Shown piece by piece: positions 3,689 to 28,948 of a stretch of DNA of 64,000 nt. The notes beneath the pieces were generated by a model. It had not been told where the DNA came from and made no database searches. It was given only the letters and a program-made list of their open reading frames with translations. Position 1 is the stretch's first letter. Each line of letters begins with the position of its first letter. The position numbers and the translations under genes are program-made. The stretch lies in contig JAGXFS010000140.1 of assembly GCA_024637275.1 (NCBI GenBank), positions 11,562-75,561 of the forward strand. Direction: 5' to 3'. This DNA is from Acidimicrobiia bacterium (GTDB lineage Bacteria; Actinomycetota; Acidimicrobiia; Spongiisociales; JAENVV01).

Positions 3689-4231
3689 TCACTTGAGGAT
3701 CTCTTGGCCCTCCACGACCTCGAACGCGTTGTCGCCGAACAGGAACACCGCTCGACCCAACGTGCCAGCACTCTCATCTGGCGGCGTGATCGAAATGACT
3801 TTGTACGACCCGGCGAACGTGTCGCCAACTCCAACGATATGGGTCGTTCCGTTCAGCACCACCTCAACAGTCAAAACCCCATCAGAGTCGGTCTGAATAT
3901 TGCTGACTTTGAAAGTGATCCCGTTGCGGCCACCCGATCCAGGCCCAAAATTGGCCGTTCCATCATCGAGAATCAGGGGACGGAAAGGGTCCCGGGGCTG
4001 GGAGGTTTGTAGGTTGGAAGCGACCACATCTCCAGCAACCAGCTGGGACACGTTGCCCGACGGTGCCGACTGAGGCGCAGCTTCGGCGATCAACGTTGCG
4101 TCGTATGGATTCGCTCCCGCCCCGAAGACCGCCGGAGCGATACCAAACCAGGCGACTGCCAGTCCAAGTCCGACCATGACGATCGCTAATGCGGTTGCCG
4201 ATCCAGATCCTCGCTTTTGCTTATGCATCAT
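3689..4231 (-). CDS. Type IV pilus-associated bitopic membrane protein (PilP-like, last gene of the pilMNOP block)
   Basis: 180 aa with one N-terminal TM helix (ALAIVMVGLGLAVAWFGIAPAVF) and an extracytoplasmic beta-rich domain. Its start overlaps the pilO stop. The assignment is by position only. Confidence 0.4.
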   Translation of the reverse strand: MMHKQKRGSGSATALAIVMVGLGLAVAWFGIAPAVFGAGANPYDATLIAEAAPQSAPSGNVSQLVAGDVVASNLQTSQPRDPFRPLILDDGTANFGPGSGGRNGITFKVSNIQTDSDGVLTVEVVLNGTTHIVGVGDTFAGSYKVISITPPDESAGTLGRAVFLFGDNAFEVVEGQEILK

Positions 4232-4878
4232 CCACCCACCGTGGTCGTGGTCGTCGAGGAATCTGGCGTCGTGGTCGTGGTCGTGGTCTCGTCGACCGGG
4301 ATATCCGGTTCTGCAACCTCTGGCGGGAGCGGAACGACAATCGCCCCCGTCGTGAACGCCATCGCGTTGATCGTAACTGTCAGGGTGTTGACGCCGGTCT
4401 CGCTGTCAATTGCAGGAGCTACGGTGATCCCGTCAACCCGAATCAGCCGATCCAATTCCGCAAGCCCGTACATGTATCCGAGCACTTCGAAATACTGGCC
4501 CGTAACGGTCATAGCGAGCGCCACCTCACGGACTCCGGTATTGCTCTGTTCGCCCGGAGTACTGAAACTGACAGCTTCCCAAACGACGTTGGCACGGTCA
4601 GCCAACACCGACAACTCATCCGTCAAACCGTCAATCTGCGGAAGTTCCGGGATAGACAACAGCATGTTGGCGTTGGCACGGTCATATTCGGGGAGCCGCT
4701 CATTAATCCGATTCAACTCGTTGAGACGTTGACGTAGCGCGTTCTCTTGGGCTTGGAGTGTTGACAGCTCCTGCTCCTGGATTGCGATGTCCTCGCCAAT
4801 CGGGGTCCACAGTAGGAAGTAGAAGGCTGCGCCAACCAAAAGCATCAGTGGAATCGCGATGAGCATGGCCCGTCTCAT
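4228..4878 (-). CDS. pilO: Type IV pilus assembly protein PilO
   Basis: The track ORF 4228..5025 overlaps pilN, so an internal Met (MRRAMLIAIPLMLLVGAAFYF...) was chosen as start. TM helix followed by a coiled coil (ELSTLQAQENALRQRLNELNRINERL). Thr-rich C-terminal tail. Confidence 0.6.
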   Translation of the reverse strand: MRRAMLIAIPLMLLVGAAFYFLLWTPIGEDIAIQEQELSTLQAQENALRQRLNELNRINERLPEYDRANANMLLSIPELPQIDGLTDELSVLADRANVVWEAVSFSTPGEQSNTGVREVALAMTVTGQYFEVLGYMYGLAELDRLIRVDGITVAPAIDSETGVNTLTVTINAMAFTTGAIVVPLPPEVAEPDIPVDETTTTTTTPDSSTTTTTVGG

Positions 4879-5504
4879 TCTGAAATCTCCACGATGCGGG
4901 TCGTCGACCGGTTCGAAAGTGCCTGAGTAGTGAGAGATGCCGACGATGAGAAGTCCACCGTCGAGAAATCGCCAATCGCGGCTTGGGTAATACTTGATAC
5001 CCAAGCACCCCCGAGTGCGGACCACTCAGTTGAGTCGAGGGTTCTAAACCAGGTTGAAGCATCCGGATAGTCAAAGGCGGTACCGGTAAACGTCACCGAC
5101 CCGTAAGTTGGGGTTTCACCGGTGTCGTCTTCGGGAGGAGCGGCGCCGGCCGTCAACGTTCCGACCCAGGTCCGCGGAGGTAAAACCCTCCCGAGGTCGT
5201 TCAAGAATCGACCCCAGTCGACGTCCACCGCCAGAGATTCAGTGATCTGCGAAGAGCGGCTTTCATAAAGATCAAGCGCTGCCGCTGCGTCGGACAACGC
5301 CGCAATGTCATTCTCAAGACGGGCGTTCGCCGCGCGCTGATTGTCGACGTTGTCAACGGCAGCGGACAGAGCCTGCGTTCGGAGGAACCACAACCCACCA
5401 AGGGCCACGAGAAAAATCACGAACAAGAGAACCACAAACGCGGAGCCACGCCGCTGCCGGGCAGCCCGTGCTTGCTCGGGAGGCAGGAGATTAATCGGCC
5501 GCAC
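4875..5504 (-). CDS. pilN: Type IV pilus assembly protein PilN
   Basis: 209 aa with the PilN hallmark N-terminus MRPINLLPPEQ (INLLP motif), then a TM helix and coiled coil. Abuts the pilM stop. Confidence 0.65.
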   Translation of the reverse strand: MRPINLLPPEQARAARQRRGSAFVVLLFVIFLVALGGLWFLRTQALSAAVDNVDNQRAANARLENDIAALSDAAAALDLYESRSSQITESLAVDVDWGRFLNDLGRVLPPRTWVGTLTAGAAPPEDDTGETPTYGSVTFTGTAFDYPDASTWFRTLDSTEWSALGGAWVSSITQAAIGDFSTVDFSSSASLTTQALSNRSTTRIVEISE

Positions 5505-6578
5505 TTATGCTTCTCCCCATAGTGCCAGACCAACCGCCACCGGCAGAACCGGTTGGGTCTGGTTGAGTTCCTCTTCGGTTAAGCCAGTCTTGCCTACGGA
5601 TAGTCGGTCGGAATTCAGCAACGCTACCGGTTGGAGCTGCATGTTGAGCTGGACCCGCATGCGGTTGGCGAGGTGCGGGAGACGCGCTCCGTTGCCAGCG
5701 ATCATGATGGTGTCGATCCCCCCGTCTTCGGCCGACGAAAGATAGAAATCAAGCGAACTGCGCACCTCATCGACCAGTGCGTCAGCCTGGCGGGTCAATG
5801 CAGCCATCGCTACGGCATCCGGGTCATTGCCAGTCGGCATTCCTTCGATAGCCACACCCAGACGCCGCTTCAACTGCTCAGCTTGATCCTGATCAATACC
5901 CAGAGCGTCCGTGACGCTCTGGGTGAAGTCGTTGCCGCCGTTGGGCACAATGCGCAAGAATCGCAACGTGCCGCCTTTGATGACGAGCACCTGCGTCAAG
6001 CTCGCGCCGATATTGACAATCGCCTTCGGGTTGGGACTCAGGTCGATGTCCCCACCGGTGGCCGCCCGCACCAGCGCAAACGCCTGGAGGTCAATAGCCT
6101 TGGGCTTGATGCCGGCTCCACCCAAAATCCGCACCACATCCGAAGCCATCTCCTTCTGGGCGGCCACGACCATGATCGACATGCGGGCTTCGCCTTCTGG
6201 CGTTGAAAACTCCTCCAACGGAACGAAATCCAGGATGGCTTCGTCGATGGGAATGGGAATATATTCTTGCGCTTGGAAAGCCAGCGACTCCGCCAGTTCG
6301 CTCTCCTGCATATAGGGCACAGAGATCTGGCGGACGATCACACGTTGATTGGCAATCCCGACAATCACATTCTTCTTGGGGATCTTCGCCTCTTTGAACA
6401 GCCGGGTTAGGGCGTCCTGGAGCACGGTTTCGTCGACGATCTCGCCGTTCTGAATTGCTCCGGGCGGCAACGCGACTTCTGCGAACTTCTTGAGGACCGG
6501 CGGACCCTTTTTCGAGGTCTCAACAAGCGCAGCTCGTACGGCACTCGTTCCGATGTCCAGACCGACATTGGCGGTCAT
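5505..6578 (-). CDS. pilM: Type IV pilus assembly ATPase-like protein PilM (actin-like fold)
   Basis: Start set at the internal Met of MTANVGLDIGTSAVRAALVE, the PilM/FtsA-like phosphate-1 motif. It is preceded by AAGGAG on the minus strand. The track ORF runs to 6608. Confidence 0.8.
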   Translation of the reverse strand: MTANVGLDIGTSAVRAALVETSKKGPPVLKKFAEVALPPGAIQNGEIVDETVLQDALTRLFKEAKIPKKNVIVGIANQRVIVRQISVPYMQESELAESLAFQAQEYIPIPIDEAILDFVPLEEFSTPEGEARMSIMVVAAQKEMASDVVRILGGAGIKPKAIDLQAFALVRAATGGDIDLSPNPKAIVNIGASLTQVLVIKGGTLRFLRIVPNGGNDFTQSVTDALGIDQDQAEQLKRRLGVAIEGMPTGNDPDAVAMAALTRQADALVDEVRSSLDFYLSSAEDGGIDTIMIAGNGARLPHLANRMRVQLNMQLQPVALLNSDRLSVGKTGLTEEELNQTQPVLPVAVGLALWGEA

Positions 6579-6691: not shown

Positions 6692-7489
6692 CTAGCCGAT
6701 GCCGAGATAAGCCCGGGCGATCTCATTGCCGAACGCAATCGCCAGCCAGGCACCAGCAACCATCGATGGGCCAAAAGGAATTGCGTCCTTGCGACTAACT
6801 CGCCTGGTGATAAGGAGAAGAATCGACACTCCCCCACCGATGAAGACCGCCCCGAACACCGCTACAACCAAAGCCGCCCAGGACACGTATCCAACGAACA
6901 TACCGAGGAAAAACGCCAGCTTCACATCACCCATCCCGAAGCCGGCCGGTACGAGCAAAGCCAGGATGAGAAAACCACCAAAATATGCGAGTGCGGTGAT
7001 CCAGGATCGACCGTAGGAACCAAGCCCACCTTCCGCAACTGCCCCCGCCCCGAGCAGCAGAGCACCAACTAGTGCTCCCGGGAACAGAATCCGGTTGGGG
7101 ATCCGTTTGGTGTCAAAATCGATGAGCGCCAAGGCCAACGTAACGGCGGCAAACCACAAATAGGCGACGACCGTCCAGTCCAGACCGACGACGAGGTAGA
7201 CGCCGTAAAACAGCGCTGCATTGGCCGCCTCTACGAGCGGGTACCGCGCCGAAATAGGAGTGCGACAGGAACGGCATTTCCCGCGCAAGAGAAGCCAAGA
7301 CAGGACCGGGAGGTTGTCATACGGCTTGATCTCCGTCCCACAGTTCGGGCAAGCCGACGGCGGGCTGACCACAGACAGACCTGCCGGGATTCGATAGACG
7401 ACCACGTTCAGAAAAGAACCAACGACGAGCCCAACCACGATGAACAGATACGGCGCGACTAGCTCAAGGTTGTCCAAATACAGATCCAT
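6692..7489 (-). CDS. pilD: Prepilin peptidase (A24 family, PilD)
   Basis: Zinc-binding Cys tetrad (CPNCGTEI...CRSCRTPI) followed by about 8 TM helices and the DxxxxxG region. Start placed at the internal MDLYLDN; the track ORF extends to 7636 in an unlikely N-terminal extension. Confidence 0.8.
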   Translation of the reverse strand: MDLYLDNLELVAPYLFIVVGLVVGSFLNVVVYRIPAGLSVVSPPSACPNCGTEIKPYDNLPVLSWLLLRGKCRSCRTPISARYPLVEAANAALFYGVYLVVGLDWTVVAYLWFAAVTLALALIDFDTKRIPNRILFPGALVGALLLGAGAVAEGGLGSYGRSWITALAYFGGFLILALLVPAGFGMGDVKLAFFLGMFVGYVSWAALVVAVFGAVFIGGGVSILLLITRRVSRKDAIPFGPSMVAGAWLAIAFGNEIARAYLGIG

Positions 7490-7539
7490 GTGTCCTACTC
7501 GATCGGTCGTGGAGCCTACCCCAAGACCGATCAGTTCAA

Positions 7540-8007
7540 CTACCAACCATTCTGGCAATCGGCGAGTAGGCCGAAGGTCATCGTGGCATCCTGGCCAAAG
7601 TAGGTGCCGGCCGCAGAACCAGATCCCTCGTCCCACAAACAGAACCAGGTACCCGAGTTGCTTTGCGCGACGAACATCACAGCCTGGTCGGCCAGTCCAT
7701 CGGCATTGGCGAGGATCACAAATCCCACCTCGTCCGGGGTCGGCGCCAGCCCGGCGACATACGCGATCCCGGCGTGCACGCGGTCGAGTTCCGGTACTCC
7801 GAAGTTGTAGTCGGCGTTGGTATCGGCATAAATCACCTTGGCCGCAGACAAAGAGTTGCGTAGATCGCTCTGCACAGCTCGGTCCTAGGCCCTGACTCTG
7901 GCTCCTAAGAACGTTGGTATCGCAATGGCAATGAGAATGGCAATAATGAGAACCACCACCATCAGCTCTACCAACGTGAAGCCTTCTTCGTCATGTTTCA
8001 GACGCAT
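7540..8007 (-). pseudogene. Type IVa major-pilin paralog interrupted by an in-frame amber codon at 7885..7887
   Basis: Reading the minus strand from the ATG at 8005..8007 (preceded by GAGGAG) gives MRLKHDEEGFTLVELMVVVLIIAILIAIAIPTFLGARVRA-TAG-DRAVQSDLRNSLSAAKVIYAD..., all in one frame. The intact paralog at 8205..8720 has Gln at the aligned position (GARERAQDRAAQSNLRN). Confidence 0.6.
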
Positions 8008-8019
8008 GAGCTCCTCGCT

Positions 8020-8050
8020 TTCAAATTGTTATATATAGAGAGTTGTATCG
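8020..8050 (-). promoter_or_regulatory. AT-rich putative promoter (-10-like TATATA) for the downstream pilin/pilD transcription unit
   Basis: The stretch ttgttatatatagagagttgtat is strongly AT-rich in an otherwise ~65% GC window. It lies about 20-40 nt upstream of the pilin RBS and start, just after the upstream terminator. Confidence 0.25.
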
Positions 8051-8105
8051 GCGCCAGACAGCTGATGCTGTAGCTCCAAGACGGAGTAGCGGACGCCGGG
8101 TCGAG

Positions 8106-8140
8106 AGAGTATTGGCACCAACTCCACAAAAAAGGGACCG
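8106..8140 (-). terminator. Rho-independent terminator following the intact pilin gene
   Basis: Perfect hairpin aaagggaccgcc-cgaa-ggcggtcccttt. On the minus strand it is followed by a T-run (TTTTTTGTGG). It sits 65 nt downstream of the pilin stop. Confidence 0.55.
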
Positions 8141-8204
8141 CCCGAAGGCGGTCCCTTTCGAATCCGAGCTACCTGACGAATCAGGCAGATCTCAGTTTGG
8201 TTTC

Positions 8205-8720
8205 TTACCAGTCAGTGGCGGCGCACTCGGCCCGGGTGAAGCTCAAGTCGACACCGGTCAGGTCCGACCCGTAGGTGGTACCCGAACCGTACGTCCCGTT
8301 CGTCAACACATCTGAGATACAGAAGCTCGTGCCCGAGGCCGAGTCCGTCGTGAAGGTGATGACCTGACGGTCAGCTGCCGCACTGTTGTTCTCGACAACG
8401 TAGCCAACTTCGTTGGCTCCGACGGTGATGGCTCCAGCAACGAAGGTCAAGCTGGGCTCGATAGCGTTCAGGAGAGCCGGCGTAACATCGGCGGCAGCAC
8501 CATTGGAGAAGTCTTCTTCGTCGGTGTAGTGCACCTTGGCCGAAGTCAACGCGTTGCGAAGGTTCGACTGGGCGGCACGGTCCTGAGCACGCTCACGAGC
8601 ACCGAGGAAGGTCGGGATGGCGATGGCGATAAGAATGGCAATAATCAAAACAACGACCATCAACTCGACGAGGGTGAAACCCTCTTCTTTGTTCAGGCGG
8701 TTACGCATCCATGAAATCAT
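8205..8720 (-). CDS. pilA: Type IVa major pilin (class III signal peptide)
   Basis: 171 aa. Leader MISWMRNRLNKEEG, then FTLVELMVVVLIIAILIAIAIP (cleavage after Gly, Glu at +5). Two Cys near the C-terminus (FCISD...AECAATDW), probably a disulfide-bonded loop. AAGGAG lies 7 nt upstream of the ATG. Confidence 0.8.
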   Translation of the reverse strand: MISWMRNRLNKEEGFTLVELMVVVLIIAILIAIAIPTFLGARERAQDRAAQSNLRNALTSAKVHYTDEEDFSNGAAADVTPALLNAIEPSLTFVAGAITVGANEVGYVVENNSAAADRQVITFTTDSASGTSFCISDVLTNGTYGSGTTYGSDLTGVDLSFTRAECAATDW

Positions 8721-8888
8721 TATGGGACTCCTTATAAGTGTTCAATGTTCCCTGCAGGCCGTCTTGACCTACGTAGGTGTTATCGACGCCCCGGCGCCGA
8801 GACTTAAGAACTAATCCACGATTCTTTAACGAGCCAGGGACCCGCAAAAAGCGAATCCCTGTCTCCGGAATTGGACCGGTTAGCTGGT

Positions 8889-10115
8889 TTACTGGACGAG
8901 GTTGACGATATTGAACATCGGCATATAGAGGGCGATCAACATGCCACCCACGGTCGCACCCAAAACGACGATAAGGAGCGGCTCGATGAGGCTGGTGAGG
9001 CCTTCGACCATCGCCTCGACCTCAGAATCGTAGAAGTCGCCAACCTTCTCGAGCATCGTGTCGAGGGCACCCGTTTCCTCCCCGACGGCGATCATCTGAA
9101 CGACCATCGGCGGAAACACCGGATGATCTCTTAGTGGGGCCGCAATCGACTCACCTTCAGCGACGGACGCCTTGACATCCTGGACGGCTCGAGCCACCAC
9201 GGCGTTGCCGGCGGTGTCAGACACAATATCCATCGCCTGGAGGATTGGCACCCCGGTCTTGGTTAGCGCTGCCAGCGTGTGCGAGAACCGAGCAATAGCC
9301 GTCTTATGAATCAGATTTCCGAAGATCGGCAGCTTCAACTTGATGGCGTCGAAGGTAGATCGTCCACCGTCGGTGGCGATCCACCTCTTGAACGACACCA
9401 GCGAACCAACCGACACAATGATCACGGCCCACCAGTAGGTGGTGACCAGCTTCGAGAGGAGCAACAAGAACTTGGTTGCACCGGGGAGCTCTCCCCCGAG
9501 GTCCGCGTATAGCGCCTCGAACATCGGTACCACGAAGATGATCATGGCCGCGACGATGAAGATAACCAGTCCGAACACCGCGATCGGATACATCATGGCC
9601 GACTTGATTTTGGACCGCAGGGCGACCTGTGCCTCGAGAGTATCGGCGAGCCGCAACAGCGTGTCGTCGAGCACACCACCCACCTCACCAGCCTTCACCA
9701 TGGCGGTGTACAGCTGGTTGAAGGCCTTCGGGTGTTGTTCCATGGCCGCTGAGAGGCTCGTACCACGTTCGACGTCAGCTTTGACCAGGTCGATGATGTC
9801 GGAGAGTGCCTTGTTCTCGGTCTGGTCCGAGAGGATACTGAGCGACCGTAGCAGCGACAGGCCCGCATTGATCATCGTGGCGAACTGCCGCGAGAAAATC
9901 GCCACGTCCTTGGCCTTCACGCGATCGGTGAGGCCCGGAATCTTGATCTCTTTCTTCAAACCAGAGTTCGCCGCGGCCGTCTCGGACAGACTGAGCGGGC
10001 TCAGGCCCTTGCCCCGCAACGCTGTCGCGGCAGCCGTCTGCGTGGAGGCTTCGATCGTGCCCTTCTTGACTTTGCCGTCCGAGTCTTTGGCCCGGTATTC
10101 AAATGTTGTAGCCAT
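8889..10115 (-). CDS. pilC: Type IV pilus platform protein PilC (GspF family)
   Basis: 408 aa with two GspF-type repeats and three TM segments. Lies between pilT and the pilin gene. Confidence 0.85.
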   Translation of the reverse strand: MATTFEYRAKDSDGKVKKGTIEASTQTAAATALRGKGLSPLSLSETAAANSGLKKEIKIPGLTDRVKAKDVAIFSRQFATMINAGLSLLRSLSILSDQTENKALSDIIDLVKADVERGTSLSAAMEQHPKAFNQLYTAMVKAGEVGGVLDDTLLRLADTLEAQVALRSKIKSAMMYPIAVFGLVIFIVAAMIIFVVPMFEALYADLGGELPGATKFLLLLSKLVTTYWWAVIIVSVGSLVSFKRWIATDGGRSTFDAIKLKLPIFGNLIHKTAIARFSHTLAALTKTGVPILQAMDIVSDTAGNAVVARAVQDVKASVAEGESIAAPLRDHPVFPPMVVQMIAVGEETGALDTMLEKVGDFYDSEVEAMVEGLTSLIEPLLIVVLGATVGGMLIALYMPMFNIVNLVQ

Positions 10116-10125
10116 GCTCTATCTC

Positions 10126-11694
10126 CTAAGCCACGCGACCGACAAGTCGCTGTAGATCTTCCAGGTCAGAGCACCGCTCCGCGGCGAGCTCGTAGGTAAT
10201 AATGTTTCGTCGCACCAGGTCCGCCAGGGACTGGTCCATGGTTTGCATGCCCCACTTTCCGCCGGCTTGCATGGCGGTGGCGATCTGGTGGTTCTTTCCT
10301 TCGCGAATCAGGTTTCTAACCGCAGGGGTTGCGACCATCACTTCGATGGCTGGAACCCGGCCACGGCCGTCACGGGTAGGCAACAGTTGCTGGGTTACGA
10401 CCGCTTGCAGCGTGGCTGCCAGCTGAACCCGGACCTGGCCCTGCTGGTGCGAAGGGAACACGTCGATCATACGATCGATCGTCTGGGGGGCGTCCTGGGT
10501 ATGAAGTGTGGCAAAAACCAGGTGGCCGGTTTCGGCTGCGGTCAGGGCGGTAGAGATGGTTTCCAGATCTCGCAGCTCACCTACCAGGATTACATCGGGG
10601 TCCTGGCGGAGGGCATGGCGCAGCGCCATGTTGAACCCCATGGTGTCTGCGCCGACCTCACGCTGGTTGACGATCGCCTTCTGATGGTGGTGTAGAAACT
10701 CGATGGGATCTTCAACGGTAAGAATGTGGCAGGCGCGTCGGCGGTTGATGAGGTCGACGATCGACGCCAGGGTGGTCGACTTACCGGAACCGGTAGGTCC
10801 CGTGACGAGGACGAGGCCACGCGCATATTCTGCGAACTCACCGACGACGGTCGGCACACCGAGTTCCTCAAGCGGCTTGATTACGTCCGGAATGGCGCGG
10901 AACACCGCCCCAACCGCGTCACGTTGAAAGAAAACGTTAAGACGGAAACGACCTTTGCCCGGCAACGGATGTGAGGCGTCGAGTTCTAGCGACTCTTCCA
11001 GCTTCTCACGCTGCTTCTCAGTCAGGATCGCATAGATCATGCGCCGGATGTCTGCCGGCATCATGATGCCAAAGTCCGTGAGTTGCCGAAGCTCGCCGTT
11101 GACGCGGATCTGAGGAGACGAGCCAGCGGTGATGTGGAGGTCAGATCCACCCTGGTCGACCAGGATCGTGAGCAACGTGTTGACATGAAGTGCCGGCTCG
11201 GCGACCTCGATGTCCGGCACGGCGCCGCCCATGCCGGGGACCCGGGTAACCGGGATTTCCTCCGGTCCATGCATGAACGAGATGGCCCGCTGGATGGCTT
11301 CCTTGGTAGCCAGAGCGAGGGTGATCTTCTTACCGGTGATCTGTTCGAGGCGCCGATGGCGTTCGGCGTCGAAGGGGTCAGCGACCGCAACCGTGAGGAC
11401 GTTATCCACCAATCGGACGGGAATCGCCAGGAGGGCGGCGGAGTCGTCGCCACTCAAGGCGGCGATTGCCTCTGGGTCGAAAAGCTGATCGTCGAGTTCG
11501 ACGTATTCCATCCCGACCCGGGCAGCAACGGTTTTGAGGAGGTCTTCTTCACGCACGAGGCCGTCATCGGTAAGGATCTTCGCCATCGGCGTACCGGTGG
11601 TTTGCTCTTTGGCCAACACTGTCTCAAGCACATCTTTTGAGAGAAGGTGCCGGTCAACGAGGAGCTCGCCAAGTTTTCGCGATGCTGAGTTCAT
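10126..11694 (-). CDS. pilT: Pilus retraction ATPase PilT with an N-terminal GspE-N/MshEN-like extension
   Basis: The C-terminal ~350 aa carry PilT hallmarks: SDLHITAGSSPQIRVNGEL, Walker A GPTGSGKST, the Asp-box, His-box ATLHTQD and the PilT-specific AVRNLIREGKNHQI. The first ~170 aa contain two repeats resembling the GspE N-terminal domain (KLGELLVDRHLLSKDVLETVLAKEQ and MAKILTDDGLVREEDLLKTVAARVGMEYVEL). Confidence 0.8.
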   Translation of the reverse strand: MNSASRKLGELLVDRHLLSKDVLETVLAKEQTTGTPMAKILTDDGLVREEDLLKTVAARVGMEYVELDDQLFDPEAIAALSGDDSAALLAIPVRLVDNVLTVAVADPFDAERHRRLEQITGKKITLALATKEAIQRAISFMHGPEEIPVTRVPGMGGAVPDIEVAEPALHVNTLLTILVDQGGSDLHITAGSSPQIRVNGELRQLTDFGIMMPADIRRMIYAILTEKQREKLEESLELDASHPLPGKGRFRLNVFFQRDAVGAVFRAIPDVIKPLEELGVPTVVGEFAEYARGLVLVTGPTGSGKSTTLASIVDLINRRRACHILTVEDPIEFLHHHQKAIVNQREVGADTMGFNMALRHALRQDPDVILVGELRDLETISTALTAAETGHLVFATLHTQDAPQTIDRMIDVFPSHQQGQVRVQLAATLQAVVTQQLLPTRDGRGRVPAIEVMVATPAVRNLIREGKNHQIATAMQAGGKWGMQTMDQSLADLVRRNIITYELAAERCSDLEDLQRLVGRVA

Positions 11695-11821: not shown

Positions 11822-13504
11822 CTACACAGTAACGCGGAGGATCTCTTCGATCGAGGTATCTCCGCGACGTGCCTTGATGAGGCCGTCCTGGCGGAGCGGA
11901 CGCATACCTTCCTGCACGGCTACCTTCTTGATGGAGTCCGTGGTCGCCTGGTCTACGGCCATCCGCTCGATCGTTTCTGAGACGAGCATGAGCTCATGCA
12001 ACGCGAGTCGCCCCCGGTACCCGGTGTCACCACACCGTGCGCAGCCGCCCGGCTTGAACAGTTCGGGAACTTCGTCCCCAAACTCGTCGAACTGCCAACC
12101 AACCCTGGCCAAGGCGTCCTTGGTCGGTTGATAGGGGGTCTTGCACTCCCCACACAACCGGCGGGCCAGGCGCTGCCCGAGGACGGAATCGACAGCTGAC
12201 CCGACGAGGAATGGTTCGACGCCCATCTCGATCAGGCGGCTGATGGCCGACGGAGCATCATTGGTATGCATCGTCGAGAGCACCAGGTGACCGGTAAGAG
12301 CAGACTCGATGGCGATCTCGCCGGTCTCCTGGTCCCGGATCTCACCAACGAGCATGATGTCGGGGTCCTGACGCAAGAACGAGCGCAACGCCGACGCGAA
12401 GGTCAGGCCGGCCTTCTTGTTCACCTGGACCTGATTGATTCCGTTGAGGCGGTACTCGACCGGATCCTCACAGGTCACGATGTTGACGTCGGGCTGATTC
12501 AGCACATTCAGCGTTGAATAGAGCGTTGTTGACTTACCGGAACCAGTCGGGCCACAGCACAGGATCGTTCCATACGCCTTGTTATATGAGGAAGCATATC
12601 GCTCGAGGGTGTCTGGCTCGAAACCAAGTTGTTCCAGTTCGAGGGTGGCCGTTGAATTGTCGAGAATACGCATGACGATCTTCTCGCCGTAGATGGTGGG
12701 AAGGGATGAAACGCGCAAGTCGATCGTTTTCGTTCCTCCCACTCGCAGGCTGATACGACCGTCTTGGGGTCGACGTCGTTCCGCAATGTCCATGTCGGCC
12801 ATGATCTTCAAACGACTGACCACGGCGTTACTGACCGATCGCGGGGTCCGCATAATCTCGTGCAACACACCGTCCACCCGGAACCGCACCCGCAGGTCCT
12901 TGTCCGTTGGCTCGATGTGGATGTCAGACGCCCGCTCTGCCGCAGCCTTAGCGATAAGCATGTTGACCAATTTGACGATGGGAGCTTCTTCGGTGGACGC
13001 TTCGACCGCATTGAGGTCTTGCGTTTCCATCTCGTCTTCGCCAAAGCCGGCGAAGTCGGTGACCGAGTCGTCGAGGCCGGCATTGTTTGCAATGGCGTTT
13101 TCAACGTCGCTTCGTGTTGCAACCTTGGCGATGACGTCGCGACCCGAGATCGCCCGAATGTCATCGATCGCCAGCACATTGGCGGGGTCAGACAGCGCTA
13201 CGACGAGCTTATCGTCTTCAAAACCGATCGGGATAGCCGCATACCGGCGAGCGAGGGCATCGGGAATAAGCGCCGTAGCGGCGGGATCGATGGTGATTTC
13301 CTTGAGGTCGACGAACTCAACGCCGATCGCCTTCGCCAACGTGCGAACCAGGTCACGCTCGGAGACAATCTTCTCCTCGACCAGCACCCGCCCAAGCGGA
13401 CGGCCAGTCTCGGCCGCCATGGCCAGACCTTTCTCAAGGAGTTCCTGAGTTAGCAGCCCCTCCTCAAGGAGGAGGCTGGCGAGGTGTCCGCTATCACGAG
13501 TCAT
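11822..13504 (-). CDS. pilB: Type IV pilus assembly (extension) ATPase PilB, GspE family
   Basis: 560 aa. GspE-N domain at the N-terminus (LASLLLEEGLLTQELLEKGL...), Walker A GPTGSGKSTT, and the tetracysteine zinc motif (CGECK...CARCGDTGYRGR) typical of PilB/GspE. Confidence 0.85.
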   Translation of the reverse strand: MTRDSGHLASLLLEEGLLTQELLEKGLAMAAETGRPLGRVLVEEKIVSERDLVRTLAKAIGVEFVDLKEITIDPAATALIPDALARRYAAIPIGFEDDKLVVALSDPANVLAIDDIRAISGRDVIAKVATRSDVENAIANNAGLDDSVTDFAGFGEDEMETQDLNAVEASTEEAPIVKLVNMLIAKAAAERASDIHIEPTDKDLRVRFRVDGVLHEIMRTPRSVSNAVVSRLKIMADMDIAERRRPQDGRISLRVGGTKTIDLRVSSLPTIYGEKIVMRILDNSTATLELEQLGFEPDTLERYASSYNKAYGTILCCGPTGSGKSTTLYSTLNVLNQPDVNIVTCEDPVEYRLNGINQVQVNKKAGLTFASALRSFLRQDPDIMLVGEIRDQETGEIAIESALTGHLVLSTMHTNDAPSAISRLIEMGVEPFLVGSAVDSVLGQRLARRLCGECKTPYQPTKDALARVGWQFDEFGDEVPELFKPGGCARCGDTGYRGRLALHELMLVSETIERMAVDQATTDSIKKVAVQEGMRPLRQDGLIKARRGDTSIEEILRVTV

Positions 13505-24619: not shown

Positions 24620-26122
24620 TTATGGCGTGCAGTAGGCCGTGACTGGCTCCGAGTTCGGAGATACATCCCGCCAGTCGCCTGGCTCAGGAATGAACGAGTC
24701 AGCGAGTGCCGGGTCAAACGTGAATCCCTGGATAACCCCTTCAGTCGGAGGACGGAAGTGGATTTCCAGGCGGTTACCCGTCTGGTCCTTGTAGCCATAC
24801 ATGGCACCGTAGATCACCGACTGGTTGGTTGACGTCACGATGCCGCTTGAGAAGACCAGGTGGTGCACCTCGCCGGGCACCGACTGGAAGTTCTGGCCAA
24901 GCGTCAATGTTCCGGTAGCTTTTTTCATGACGATGATTACGGAGGCCGGTTCGCCCGAGGGAGTCGAGCCCTTCTTCGGTGTGCCTCGAATCTCAAACGA
25001 GCCATCAACGATCAGAACGAAGTTGTCCGTGAAGGTGTTCTGATGGAAGTTGACGACACTTCCGTCCCCCGCCGCGACCACATGGACACCTTTGAGGTTA
25101 TTGCCGTTGGCCGCCACATAAGCACGGAAGTCCGCCAGGTTGGCATAGTAAGTGATCGTATAGCCCACGTAGTCACCTGCGTTGAAAGTGAAGACCGGGA
25201 GCGACACGTCTGGCACCGGCTGCATGTCATTGGCGTTCGGGATCAAAGTGGCGCCACCAATGTTCGATCCAGCCTTGAGAGCTAGGTCAGCAATCTTGAC
25301 TTCGCCACCGAGCACCGTCGCTTTCTTGAAGTATGAGTTCAGATAGGACGAGATGGTGCCGTCGGACCGGATTTGCACAGTCGACCCATATTGGGTTGAC
25401 GCAGACAGATCGTTGACACGACCTTGCACGTTGACATCCGATTGAACGAACACGTTCGAACCGCTGTCGATAGTCAGGTCACCGTATACCGTCATGGTGC
25501 CCTCGCCGCGATAGGGGTCATCGTTCTTGAAGATACTGGTTTGAGCCGAAATCGTGACGTCTTCACCCGAGTAGGCGTCACCGTAGATCGTCTTGAAGTT
25601 CGCTCCGACGATTCCACCCTTGGCTGCAAAGAGCGCATTGGTGAAGCCACCAAGAGGCACCAATTCGACGTCAAGCAACACCTTCTTGGCGACTCCCTTC
25701 GACGAGGTGCGGCTTGGTGCCCACCCCCACGACTCGAGGTGGTACTTAAGGTTATCGACCTTGGTGACTGCCACCCAATATTCGCCCTGACCCTCCACGA
25801 CGCCTTCGGCAACCGTCTCCAGGGTCTGCACGTCGCAGATCCCACCGGCCAGGATCCCCGAGGAGGCAAACCCGACGCTCTGCGCGTCCGTGCGCCAGCT
25901 GTCGACGTCGTAGGTGAGCAAAGCCATCGCTTCTTTCGCTCCTGCCTCGGCGACGTTTAACGCCTGAGTACGGTTACGGTCGAACGAGACCTCATCCAGT
26001 TCGTGAACCGCCAACGAATACCATGTGGCACCGAGCGCAAACACGATGAACGACACCGACAGAGCGGTGATAATACCGATGCCATCCTCGTCAGATCTCA
26101 GTTGTTCGATGAATTTGCGCAT
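24620..26122 (-). CDS. PilX/TadG-like pilus-associated protein (N-terminal PilX_N-like TM segment, large beta-rich extracellular region)
   Basis: 500 aa. N-terminus DEDGIGIITALSVSFIVFALGATWYSLAV resembles the PilX N-terminal domain. The remainder is rich in G/S/T/N/D/V repeats, suggesting a beta-helix-like fold. Last gene of a three-gene prepilin operon. Confidence 0.5.
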   Translation of the reverse strand: MRKFIEQLRSDEDGIGIITALSVSFIVFALGATWYSLAVHELDEVSFDRNRTQALNVAEAGAKEAMALLTYDVDSWRTDAQSVGFASSGILAGGICDVQTLETVAEGVVEGQGEYWVAVTKVDNLKYHLESWGWAPSRTSSKGVAKKVLLDVELVPLGGFTNALFAAKGGIVGANFKTIYGDAYSGEDVTISAQTSIFKNDDPYRGEGTMTVYGDLTIDSGSNVFVQSDVNVQGRVNDLSASTQYGSTVQIRSDGTISSYLNSYFKKATVLGGEVKIADLALKAGSNIGGATLIPNANDMQPVPDVSLPVFTFNAGDYVGYTITYYANLADFRAYVAANGNNLKGVHVVAAGDGSVVNFHQNTFTDNFVLIVDGSFEIRGTPKKGSTPSGEPASVIIVMKKATGTLTLGQNFQSVPGEVHHLVFSSGIVTSTNQSVIYGAMYGYKDQTGNRLEIHFRPPTEGVIQGFTFDPALADSFIPEPGDWRDVSPNSEPVTAYCTP

Positions 26123-26140
26123 GTTGGTTTTTTTCGCTTT

Positions 26141-26776
26141 CTAACAGTTGGCTGCGTTGGGGGTCCAAATATTGCGACCTGCTACTTCGGTTGATTCCAG
26201 GCGAGGGCTGATCCGGTCCAACGGACTCCGATCGATCCACACTGAGATCCGGACAACTTTGCCGTAGCTCGGCGAGGCCGACGGAAGGCCAGTGTTGTTG
26301 ATCTCGTTTCTGCCCTGGTTTTCAAACAGGAACTGGGGCGTGCCCAGGTCGACCGCAACAATCTCGTTGACGACGGTTTCGTTGACGGTTATAAACGTCA
26401 GGCCGCCATCACCGGATCGCTGCAGGTCCGTGTTGGCCCCGTCACCATCGACGTCAACCAACCGATAGATGATATGACGGGTGTCAGCCGGCGGGATCGG
26501 ATTGGAACGAGTAATGAACGACAGCGTGTTGGAAGCATCGCCAGGTGCGGGGATGCAAATCGTCTCGGCGCCGCGGAGCTCTCTATCCACCCTCTCCAAA
26601 ATCAAACGAATATCGTCGTTGGTCCTCGCCGAGTTTTCAATATCACGGGTAGCTCGCAACGAGGACGACAGCACGTTCGAGAACACGATGCTCACGATGG
26701 TCAACAGGAAGATGGCAACCATCAGTTCCGTGAGGGTGAGACCCCGTTCGTCGGTCTTGAGGCGGTCGAAGATCAT
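26141..26776 (-). CDS. Minor pilin / pseudopilin with a prepilin-type N-terminal cleavage-methylation domain
   Basis: Start at the internal MIFDRLKTDERG, then LTLTELMVAIFLLTIVSIVF (class III signal peptide, Glu at +5). The track ORF extends to 26809. The start overlaps the stop of the upstream giant pilin. Confidence 0.65.
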   Translation of the reverse strand: MIFDRLKTDERGLTLTELMVAIFLLTIVSIVFSNVLSSSLRATRDIENSARTNDDIRLILERVDRELRGAETICIPAPGDASNTLSFITRSNPIPPADTRHIIYRLVDVDGDGANTDLQRSGDGGLTFITVNETVVNEIVAVDLGTPQFLFENQGRNEINNTGLPSASPSYGKVVRISVWIDRSPLDRISPRLESTEVAGRNIWTPNAANC

Positions 26777-26777
26777 G

Positions 26778-28832
26778 TCAGTCCGCCGATGGGTCAATGT
26801 AGACAGCATTTACGTTGAGCTTCTCAGATTCGTAATGAAGGCCGAGGTCGTAGAGAACGATCCGCCCCCCATCCTGTGCGTAAACGAGGCGCGGTGGGGT
26901 GAGGCTGCCAAATCCTCCCGCTTCCAGTCCGTACTCCACGACCTTGTAGTCGAGGTCGACCGTGACCATCGGCAGCTTCGTCTCAAACCAGGTGCGCGAG
27001 CGTGCGGCCAGGCCGTCCACCGTGGACCCGGTACACCAGCCATTGACCGTCACCGAACCCGACACGGTGTACTCAAGGCGCGGTCGCCCTGGAGAAGAGA
27101 TCGTACTCGTGATCGGAACACCGCCCCAGAGTTGGACCGTGTTGGCAATGTTGGTACCGCTGCCGCAATTGGAGCCGTAGTTGGCACGGTAGTCAACAGC
27201 AGACGCAGTCCCGTTCGGATTCACGACCACATACCTACGAAGGGCGGGATCCCATTGTTTGATGATCATGGTGGTCATGATCGGGTTCGGGTTGGCGATG
27301 ACGCCCTGTCCGGCAAGCACGTTGACCTGCACGTCGGGCATGGTGACAACCACCCAACCGTGAAAGTCGCCGGTTCCGCCGTTATCCGGATACGCCGTAT
27401 CGTCAAAGAAGTGAAGGTTTCCGCCGTCGTAGTTGTCGAGTGACGCAGCGATCTGCTGATACCCGTCGATTGGGGTGTCATCACGATCGACGGTCCCGCC
27501 GAAGACGATGGCCGAGGTTGGGAAGCTGGGGTTCTCCCGCCGGAACATATCGAACTTGTAGGAAGCGGCGTCAAGCGCAGAGACCCAGTTGCTATACATC
27601 ACACGTAATGACGATGGCGTGGTCTCGGTGTATTCGGTGAACCCAACGGCCATCTTGGCGGGGAACTTTGTCGTCGTCGCCAACTGAGCGAAGGGAAACT
27701 TGTCGTCGGGTGGTGGCGCGGCCGGAACCGGGTCGACCTCAGTAAACAGGTAGCCATTGATCGCGTAGTCCGAAGTTTCCGTGATCTGGAGATCCTGATC
27801 AGCCGGTCCGGCGTAGTTGAGTCTCGCCAACGGTTGATTGAAAAGGACGCCGTTCGCCCCGAACTGCAGTGGCGGAATGGTGCTGGCGTCGTCGTCGCTA
27901 AGAAACTCCGTCTTCGCCGCGGGCAGTGTGAGGACCGGGTCGTCGAGCGTACCGTATAAGCCATCGGGACCTTCCCACTGGAGGCGCGACGAGTCGGTAC
28001 CAGAAACCCGAATTGATGACCCGGACACGAAGTCCGATGTAGCGCTCACCGTGGCGATTGGGAAGTTCACCGATGCATCAAACTGCTGGCGTTCATTTAT
28101 GGTCGACCAGAAGATCTCTGGAAGACCACCCGGTTGCGTCCAGGTCTCAACGTCGGTTCCGTGCGCATACGCACCGGCATAGACCCCGGACTTCGACGGC
28201 CCAATCCGCAGGGCGCCACCAGCCATATTCACCGTACCTGAAACGAACGGCTGGGACGGTTCCTGATACTCGGACACAATCGTCTCAAGCCGTACTTCTT
28301 TGCGGAAACCACCCGGCGGGACCCATTGCACGATCGCTGTTAGCCGGCGAGCAATCTCGTCGCCGGTCACCGGGTTTTCGATCGACGTCACGAACAGATA
28401 TCTGTCGTACACGGAGGTGTCGCGCTGCACCGATTCGTAGAAGTTCAAGAATGGGCGGAACGTGTCGGCATTCGAGAACACGACTGTCTCGCCGCCGAAG
28501 ATGTACTCATCCGCGACACCGTCGTAGATGAGATCACCGGCAGTGAACGGACTCCCGATGTAGCACCCGACTTGCTCGGTGGCGCAGCTATTACCACGAG
28601 TTGAAGTGGCAAGACCCATGTGTTCCCACTCCAACGCCTGGCCTCGTTCGATTAGCTCGGAGGCGAACGCCGAGGCAACCGCCTGCTTGCGGGTTTCCAC
28701 GATGACCCTGGTACCGGAGTCGAAGGTACGCAACAGCACAACCATGAGACCAAAGATGATCACAAGCGAGACCATGGCTTCGACAAGGGTGAAGCCCCTG
28801 TCATCATTCGGAACGCGGTGCAGTAAACGCAT
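26778..28832 (-). CDS. Giant (~685 aa) prepilin-type protein: a minor pilin with a large C-terminal module
   Basis: Leader MRLLHRVPNDDRG, then FTLVEAMVSLVIIFGLMVVLL (class III signal peptide, Glu +5). It is followed by more than 600 aa of soluble, G/T/S/N/Y-rich sequence. The track ORF begins at a TTG at 28841 and the ATG at 28832 is preferred. Confidence 0.65.
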   Translation of the reverse strand: MRLLHRVPNDDRGFTLVEAMVSLVIIFGLMVVLLRTFDSGTRVIVETRKQAVASAFASELIERGQALEWEHMGLATSTRGNSCATEQVGCYIGSPFTAGDLIYDGVADEYIFGGETVVFSNADTFRPFLNFYESVQRDTSVYDRYLFVTSIENPVTGDEIARRLTAIVQWVPPGGFRKEVRLETIVSEYQEPSQPFVSGTVNMAGGALRIGPSKSGVYAGAYAHGTDVETWTQPGGLPEIFWSTINERQQFDASVNFPIATVSATSDFVSGSSIRVSGTDSSRLQWEGPDGLYGTLDDPVLTLPAAKTEFLSDDDASTIPPLQFGANGVLFNQPLARLNYAGPADQDLQITETSDYAINGYLFTEVDPVPAAPPPDDKFPFAQLATTTKFPAKMAVGFTEYTETTPSSLRVMYSNWVSALDAASYKFDMFRRENPSFPTSAIVFGGTVDRDDTPIDGYQQIAASLDNYDGGNLHFFDDTAYPDNGGTGDFHGWVVVTMPDVQVNVLAGQGVIANPNPIMTTMIIKQWDPALRRYVVVNPNGTASAVDYRANYGSNCGSGTNIANTVQLWGGVPITSTISSPGRPRLEYTVSGSVTVNGWCTGSTVDGLAARSRTWFETKLPMVTVDLDYKVVEYGLEAGGFGSLTPPRLVYAQDGGRIVLYDLGLHYESEKLNVNAVYIDPSAD

Positions 28833-28948
28833 ACCTACCAAGTATCGGTCAGACTGCCCGTCAACCTTGACCTTTTTCGGGCCTGGCGGCCGGTCTAACC
28901 CCGCCTGCCACGATGAGACTAGTTACCCAGGGGTTCTCGCCTGCCTGG

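Follow-up and report, generated by a model that had tools for sequence, protein, structure and literature searches.

Tandem pilin paralogs, in arrangements of the pilA1/pilA2 type, are known in the type IV pilus clusters of Gram-positive bacteria and actinobacteria. The accessory genes of bacterial surface structures also give rise to ordinary nonsense pseudogenes, in which a single transition turns a conserved sense codon into a premature stop; such lesions are restricted to a lineage, leave the paralog and the machinery intact, and carry no signal for recoding. An in-frame UAG may also be decoded, through programmed readthrough or amber suppression (by a supE-type tRNA-Gln(CUA) or with pyrrolysine). 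For Geobacter and its relatives, it is proposed that a pilin gene, at first full-length, was split into adjacent genes encoding its N- and C-terminal parts, with the fission in the loop after the helix, and the split is conserved across the clade (PMC5174107). A search of the literature for pilin genes interrupted by nonsense mutations brought up nothing directly relevant.

The window (the whole stretch of 64,000 nucleotides that was analysed) shares something with each of these. It carries a pilus cluster in which two adjacent pilin genes, here called pilinA and pilinB, lie between pilC and pilD, with the same alpha1-N and divergent globular domains, an arrangement conserved across related species. 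Unlike pairs of the pilA1/pilA2 type, however, one of the two pilins is interrupted. The interruption of pilinB is an in-frame TAG where Gln is ancestral, the feature that recalls readthrough and suppression, but here the stop is not conserved, no stimulatory structure accompanies it, TAG is a normal terminator, and no suppressor tRNA or Pyl genes are found in the window. It also leaves helix and globular part as two adjacent ORFs, as in Geobacter. In pilinB, however, the break is one stop inside alpha1 and is confined to a single population, no export signal accompanies the downstream piece, and the gene is undivided in all relatives; pilinB is not a member of the PilA-N/PilA-C split-pilin kind. 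With ordinary nonsense pseudogenes, pilinB shares every feature named above, differing only in that it seems to have been caught unusually early, with no secondary decay and with an omega after the stop equal to that of functional orthologues. The nonsense mutation is itself of an ordinary and well-known type, and pilinB is very probably a young nonsense allele, or nascent pseudogene, of a second and probably accessory pilin, with no sign of unusual decoding.

The whole pilinB locus, including the premature stop, occupies 7540-8007 on the minus strand. Its translation from the ATG at 8007 reads MRLKHDEEGFTLVELMVVVLIIAILIAIAIPTFLGARVRA, a stop, and then DRAVQSDLRNSLSAAKV...ADCQNGW up to a further stop. 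The first of these is a single in-frame TAG at 7887-7885 (codon 41), after 40 sense codons; the second, the normal terminator, is likewise TAG (7542-7540) and lies in the same frame as the ATG. The part of the gene 5' of the interruption (7885-8007, ending with the premature TAG) encodes MRLKHDEEG, a class III signal peptide, followed by alpha1-N, a hydrophobic helix. The prepilin motif, MRLKHDEEG/FTLVELMVVVLIIAILIAIAIP, has a short leader that is charged and ends in Gly, followed by Phe+1, Glu+5, and the hydrophobic helix, and PF07963 (N_methyl) matches it with E=1.4e-8 and a score of 34.4 against a cut-off of 21.2, so the pilin N-terminus described in the earlier reading is confirmed by profile. 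The remainder (7540-7884) contains 114 sense codons, D42 to W155, which complete alpha1 and supply the globular domain, in which two Cys residues are conserved, and aligns without gaps to intact orthologues. The sequence-only reading had counted 111 further codons, but that number belongs to the ORF that ORF callers produce mechanically from a GTG (Val45) at 7873-7875. The conceptual read-through product shows no gap against the four closest intact orthologues of 155 aa. C123 and C151 are invariant, JGI gives the name PilA to more distant homologues, and the gene is found with a prepilin peptidase and assembly genes (it is flanked by pilB, the pilB-like gene, pilC, pilD, pilM, pilN, and pilO). 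By every sequence criterion tested, pilinB is a type IV pilin.

The signals for its translation are in place. A Shine-Dalgarno sequence, the GAGGAG that the earlier reading had seen before the ATG, lies at 8016-8011, three bases 5' of that codon, and belongs to a conserved 5' region (8008-8050, minus strand) that also includes a TAACAA/TTGAAAGC block. Alignment of seven orthologous upstream regions shows the region to be intact in the window, with ribosome-binding site and conserved block both unchanged relative to the orthologues.

An oddity of codon usage lies just 5' of the TAG, in codons 30-39 (7891-7920, minus strand), where four of the rarest codons in the genes of the window occur within ten codons: ATA (5% of Ile codons), TTA (1.7% of those for Leu), and the Arg codons AGA (3.4%) and AGG (4%). 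The orthologous locus L003 has an identical cluster, most of which also persists in L004 and L012, while pilinA has common codons for the same residues. It may represent a conserved translational slow-down or a signature of low expression.

On the minus strand, the pilus cluster runs in the order DUF4388/PatA_N protein, pilB (11822-13504), a second, PilB-like ATPase of 522 aa (10126-11694), pilC (8889-10115), pilinA (8205-8720), pilinB, pilD (6692-7489), pilM, pilN, and pilO (the three together at 4228-6578), and an ORF of 180 aa (3689-4231). The genes were identified through Pfam, and the synteny of pilB, the PilB-like gene, and pilC is conserved. The prepilin peptidase PilD, 265 aa from the ATG at 7489, matches A24_N_bact and Peptidase_A24 and has orthologues of 265 aa; 3' of it, pilM, pilN, and pilO are all intact, equal in length to their orthologues and with no internal stops. 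The sequence-only reading had placed pilD-pilMNOP downstream of the interrupted pilin. The first four of these genes are there, but for the ORF after pilO, which is 179-180 aa in all syntenic loci and has no Pfam match, the name pilP is tentative. The cluster sits between aroE and aroC-aroB-efp in a backbone of actinobacterial housekeeping genes (ruvCAB, queA, tgt, secDF, apt, relA, hisS, aspS, rarA, alaS, mltG), and the G+C fraction of the window is about 0.60 throughout.

The paralog, pilinA, is an intact gene on the minus strand encoding 171 aa, with 171-aa orthologues in all syntenic loci and an omega of 0.04-0.08 among close relatives. The observation that started this work, that one pilin gene has an in-frame TAG where its intact paralog has CAG, is borne out by translation and by nucleotide alignment of the two genes, pilinA being uninterrupted. 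The proteins are identical from G(-1) to mature R28 and part at mature residue 29 (E vs V), so the identity is shorter than the 31 mature residues originally given. The synonymous divergence reported along with it does hold, however, with differences at 20 of 29 identical-residue codons.

An intrinsic terminator lies 3' of pilinA (8124-8159, minus strand), consisting of a 13-bp GC-rich hairpin and then a U-tract (fold -44.7 kcal/mol, z=-4.4). It was found by direct folding and conservation, a consensus scan for promoters and terminators having missed the hairpin, and its stem is kept in all seven loci aligned. The conserved terminator puts pilinA and pilinB in separate transcription units, so that pilinB begins a new one. 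The earlier reading had given pilinB its own promoter-like region. A scan of 7300-8950 for the sigma-70 consensus found no promoter match, and what survives of the proposal is a conserved AT-rich block 5' of the pilinB ATG, with the terminator 5' of that block. At the other end of the gene, pilD lies only 49-50 nt downstream, and alignment of the pilinB-pilD junction shows no terminator-like T-run. From its intactness, strong conservation, and strong terminator, pilinA is probably the major pilin; pilinB, with its conserved cluster of rare codons and its place at the head of the pilD-pilMNO unit, is probably an accessory or alternative one.

The spacer between pilinB and pilD (7491-7539, minus strand) also contains an inverted repeat, GATCGGTC...GACCGATC, whose arms of 8 bp enclose a loop of 16 nt. 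It is kept in close relatives, again with no T-run after it, and could form a hairpin for RNA processing or attenuation.

How old is the stop, and what did it replace? Codon 41 is CAG, within an intact 155-aa gene, in all 21 orthologous DNA loci (76-91.5% nucleotide identity). The sister lineages represented by these loci (L003-L016 and L097-L101) number four or five. Identity to the window is about 87% for L003 and L004-L011, about 76% for L012-L016, about 86% for L097 and L098, and 89.5-91.5% for L099-L101. Gene order is identical to that of the window wherever the orthologous contigs are long enough. At the level of protein, Gln41 is present in 18 of the 18 sequences aligned with pilinB (its 17 closest orthologues and the pilinA of its own genome), inside an invariant RAQDRA. 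When the read-through sequence was used as a query, the matches were pilins in their thousands, and the closest to it are uninterrupted proteins of 155 aa, with identities of 95%, 95%, and 82%, followed by others at 70-78%. Those relatives of the pilins that carry names are MAGs of Acidimicrobiia, the nearest being of Acidimicrobiia/Ilumatobacteraceae. One cluster member, P0133, differs from the conceptual pilinB product by three residues, and the best intact protein is 98% identical to that product, although the DNA of its locus is only 91.5% identical. Neither the protein database nor a JGI metagenome scan yielded an uninterrupted allele from the species of the window itself. That scan, which was indifferent to the allele, brought up only two contigs, each with CAG and each belonging to a sister lineage of about 86% identity, and a contig scan matched mainly the generic pilin N-terminus (GFTLVELM, VVVLIIAIL), returning only pilins of 46-48% identity.

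Since CAG and an intact gene are found in every orthologous locus, the TAG is derived and restricted to this lineage, the product of a C-to-T transition. The change lies at 7887 on the coding strand (G-to-A on the plus strand), within the CAG codon for Gln, which upholds the earlier reading of the stop as a single C-to-T change in a Gln codon. Gene conversion from pilinA was also considered as a source of the TAG and was ruled out; the pertinent codons are GCT CAG GAC CGT in pilinA and GCC TAG GAC CGA in pilinB.

If pilinB had been out of use for long, the codons after the stop should have begun to drift. The ratio omega was calculated from Nei-Gojobori counts for codons 42-155, and against the nearest intact relative (L099) it is 0.051, from 16 synonymous and 3 non-synonymous differences at a dS of 0.23. 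Against L101 and L003, the values are 0.079 and 0.071, and comparisons of intact orthologues with one another give 0.05-0.063. Neutral evolution along the whole path from the window to L099 is rejected (P about 5e-8). The window's own branch carries five synonymous changes, the nonsense change, and, at positions that are variable, two missense changes (P100A and one giving L147); two or fewer missense changes among seven has P=0.011 under neutrality. By a simple Poisson bound (95% upper), less than roughly 10% of the path between the window and L099 was neutral, and the dS accumulated since inactivation would be below about 0.02. The region after the stop shows no frameshift, no second stop, and no relaxed selection. 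An omega of about 0.05 in a region free of further lesions argues that pilinB was under purifying selection until very recently. The sequence-only reading had proposed long-term purifying selection with a very recent inactivation, or none at all, from comparison of the two paralogs; comparison with orthologues upholds the proposal and is the stronger ground for it. The undecayed state of the region would fit a very recent inactivation or continued selection alike, but the former appears far more probable, because there is no recoding signal and the stop is not conserved.

Divergence is distributed unevenly along the gene. Among pilinB and its orthologues in L003, L004, and L012, dS is 0.07-0.28 in codons 1-40 and 0.55-2.2 in codons 42-155. 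The low values at the N-terminus contrast with the synonymous differences at 20/29 codons seen between the paralogs of the same genome, and suggest constraint at the level of nucleotides or recombination in this segment. Also, the dS of pilinB against L099 (0.22) is well under that of the adjacent pilD (0.55).

Other accounts of the TAG may be imagined. The most mundane, and one that the earlier reading had allowed for, is that the true base is C and the TAG an error of sequencing or assembly that entered the consensus, and a difference of one base, where every other sequence has CAG, is much what such an error would look like. Exact-protein look-ups, however, found the same split ORFs of 40 aa and 111 aa on contigs from the SRA runs SRR13628065 and SRR13628066, whose identities to the window are 99.89% and 99.96% and which differ from it by three SNPs and one SNP, respectively, all in pilM. 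The TAG is present, then, in three assemblies, the window and two separately assembled runs (though all three may share one study or site), and no homopolymer or repeat surrounds 7887-7885. Since two independently assembled runs, each with SNPs of its own, agree on the base, random error in assembly or consensus is judged unlikely from these sequences, while an artefact of a systematic sort, or CAG as the allele of a minority, is formally possible at 7887; altogether, an artefact is a very improbable source of the stop. Still less credence, in fact almost none, can be given to a change in the genetic code or recoding of the pyrrolysine type, in favor of which there is nothing beyond the in-frame TAG itself. 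The sequence-only reading had suggested checking whether other genes end in TAG. They do: the terminator is TAG in 15 (27%) of 56 long non-overlapping ORFs of the window, TAA in 19, and TGA in 22. The TAG terminators of pilB, the PilB-like gene, pilD, aroC, and pilinB occupy the same positions, and give the same protein lengths, in two sister species, and at the end of pilC, TAA in two species is exchanged for TAG in a third. Housekeeping genes that end in TAG (alaS, pdxS, and yebC, for example) match Pfam models end to end. The other ten of the 11 cluster genes have no internal stop of any kind, TAG included, when compared with orthologues in length and stop position; within the annotated portion of the window (approximately 1-42 kb), nothing resembles Pyl genes or a tRNA; and orthologues have Gln at codon 41, not Lys or Pyl. 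Amber reassignment in this organism is rejected on these comparisons. (A GC3-filtered scan for other in-frame stops gave some 100 candidates and left the pilin site unflagged, but in this DNA, GC3 does not tell frames that are coding from those that are not.)

A more interesting thought is that the TAG is real, is an ordinary stop codon, and yet lets some pilinB through, with the allele tolerated or regulated. The UAG might be decoded by a suppressor tRNA encoded elsewhere or, most plausibly, by the near-cognate tRNA-Gln(CUG). Near-cognate readthrough of UAG most likely inserts Gln, which in pilinB would restore the wild-type protein. The absence of decay after the stop and the intact 5' signals are in keeping with such low-level function, but lack of decay is equally expected of a very young null allele. 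Against it, the stop is found in none of the 21 orthologous loci, with no hint of selection for it; the structure of the RNA in the 121 nt around and after the TAG is no better than that of shuffled sequences (z=0.01); the 64-kb window contains no tRNA, hence no suppressor tRNA, and no match to Rfam; and TAG is a frequent and positionally conserved terminator, pilinB's own included. Since the stop is absent from relatives and has neither a stimulatory structure nor a suppressor tRNA in the window, programmed readthrough, one of the options raised by the earlier reading, finds no support in the sequence, and residual function in general seems unlikely. A stronger version, that the TAG allele is not merely young but maintained, with near-cognate insertion of Gln attenuating expression or with the machinery making use of a 31-residue stub, is very unlikely; were it true, it would be an unusual means of tuning pilin stoichiometry in an actinobacterium. 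Then there is nascent fission of the gene, in which the 40-aa helix and the 111-aa globular fragment from the GTG at 7875 would cooperate in the style of the Geobacter PilA-N and PilA-C. Gene callers report both ORFs, an AGGA lies 7 nt 5' of the GTG, and the adjacent N- and C-terminal pilin genes of Desulfuromonadales provide a precedent (PMC5174107). AGGA and GTG, however, are both present already in intact CAG alleles and are not new signals, and the 111-aa product, as read from the sequence, has no signal peptide or hydrophobic segment and would stay in the cytoplasm. For these reasons, the 111-aa ORF gives no evidence of an independent gene. The break, moreover, falls at mature residue 32, inside alpha1, not in the loop after the helix where the Geobacter gene was divided (PMC5174107), and the split is limited to one population. 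Fission is thus a highly improbable account.

We favor, then, the nascent pseudogene, and its consequences may be sketched. A single C-to-T transition would have turned the CAG of the invariant Gln41 into TAG. With standard decoding, translation would stop after 40 residues, and cleavage by PilD would leave a hydrophobic helix stub of 31 residues, the transmembrane half of alpha1 with no globular domain, from which a normal pilus subunit could not be made. The allele would effectively be null, judging the loss of function from the sequence of the product. With the machinery and pilinA intact, the cell probably still makes pili, minus the pilinB subunit. A polar effect of the stop on pilD-pilMNO, of the sort suggested in the earlier reading, is also conceivable, given some 345 nt of untranslated message and no terminator or recognizable promoter before pilD. 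The untranslated stretch is not rich in C over G (99 C, 110 G).

If this is correct, then 7540-8007 would properly enter annotation as one locus, a pilin pseudogene or null allele, and not as separate ORFs of 40 and 111 aa. It would also be a clean case of a pseudogene caught at birth, before any decay, in an Acidimicrobiia-like lineage that apparently can do without one of two strongly conserved tandem pilins. Should the allele prove polymorphic, it could serve as a population marker; should readthrough be demonstrated, the locus would be a modest curiosity. On two Logan contigs (L001, 823-1290, and L002, 537-1004), gene callers make of the interrupted pilin two 'genes' of 40 aa and 111 aa, and the 111-aa fragment in this way becomes an unannotated orphan in protein databases.

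Some minor observations concern the rest of the window. Between relA and the genes for a metallo-beta-lactamase-fold protein and hisS lie three consecutive large ORFs (24620-28841, minus strand; 500, 222, and 687 aa) with no Pfam match at E<=1e-6. Within the pilus cluster, there is no obvious PilT retraction ATPase. The PilB-like ATPase at 10126-11694 has an MshEN domain and a partial match to T2SSE (profile positions 136-284 of 370), and its length is the same in all syntenic relatives.
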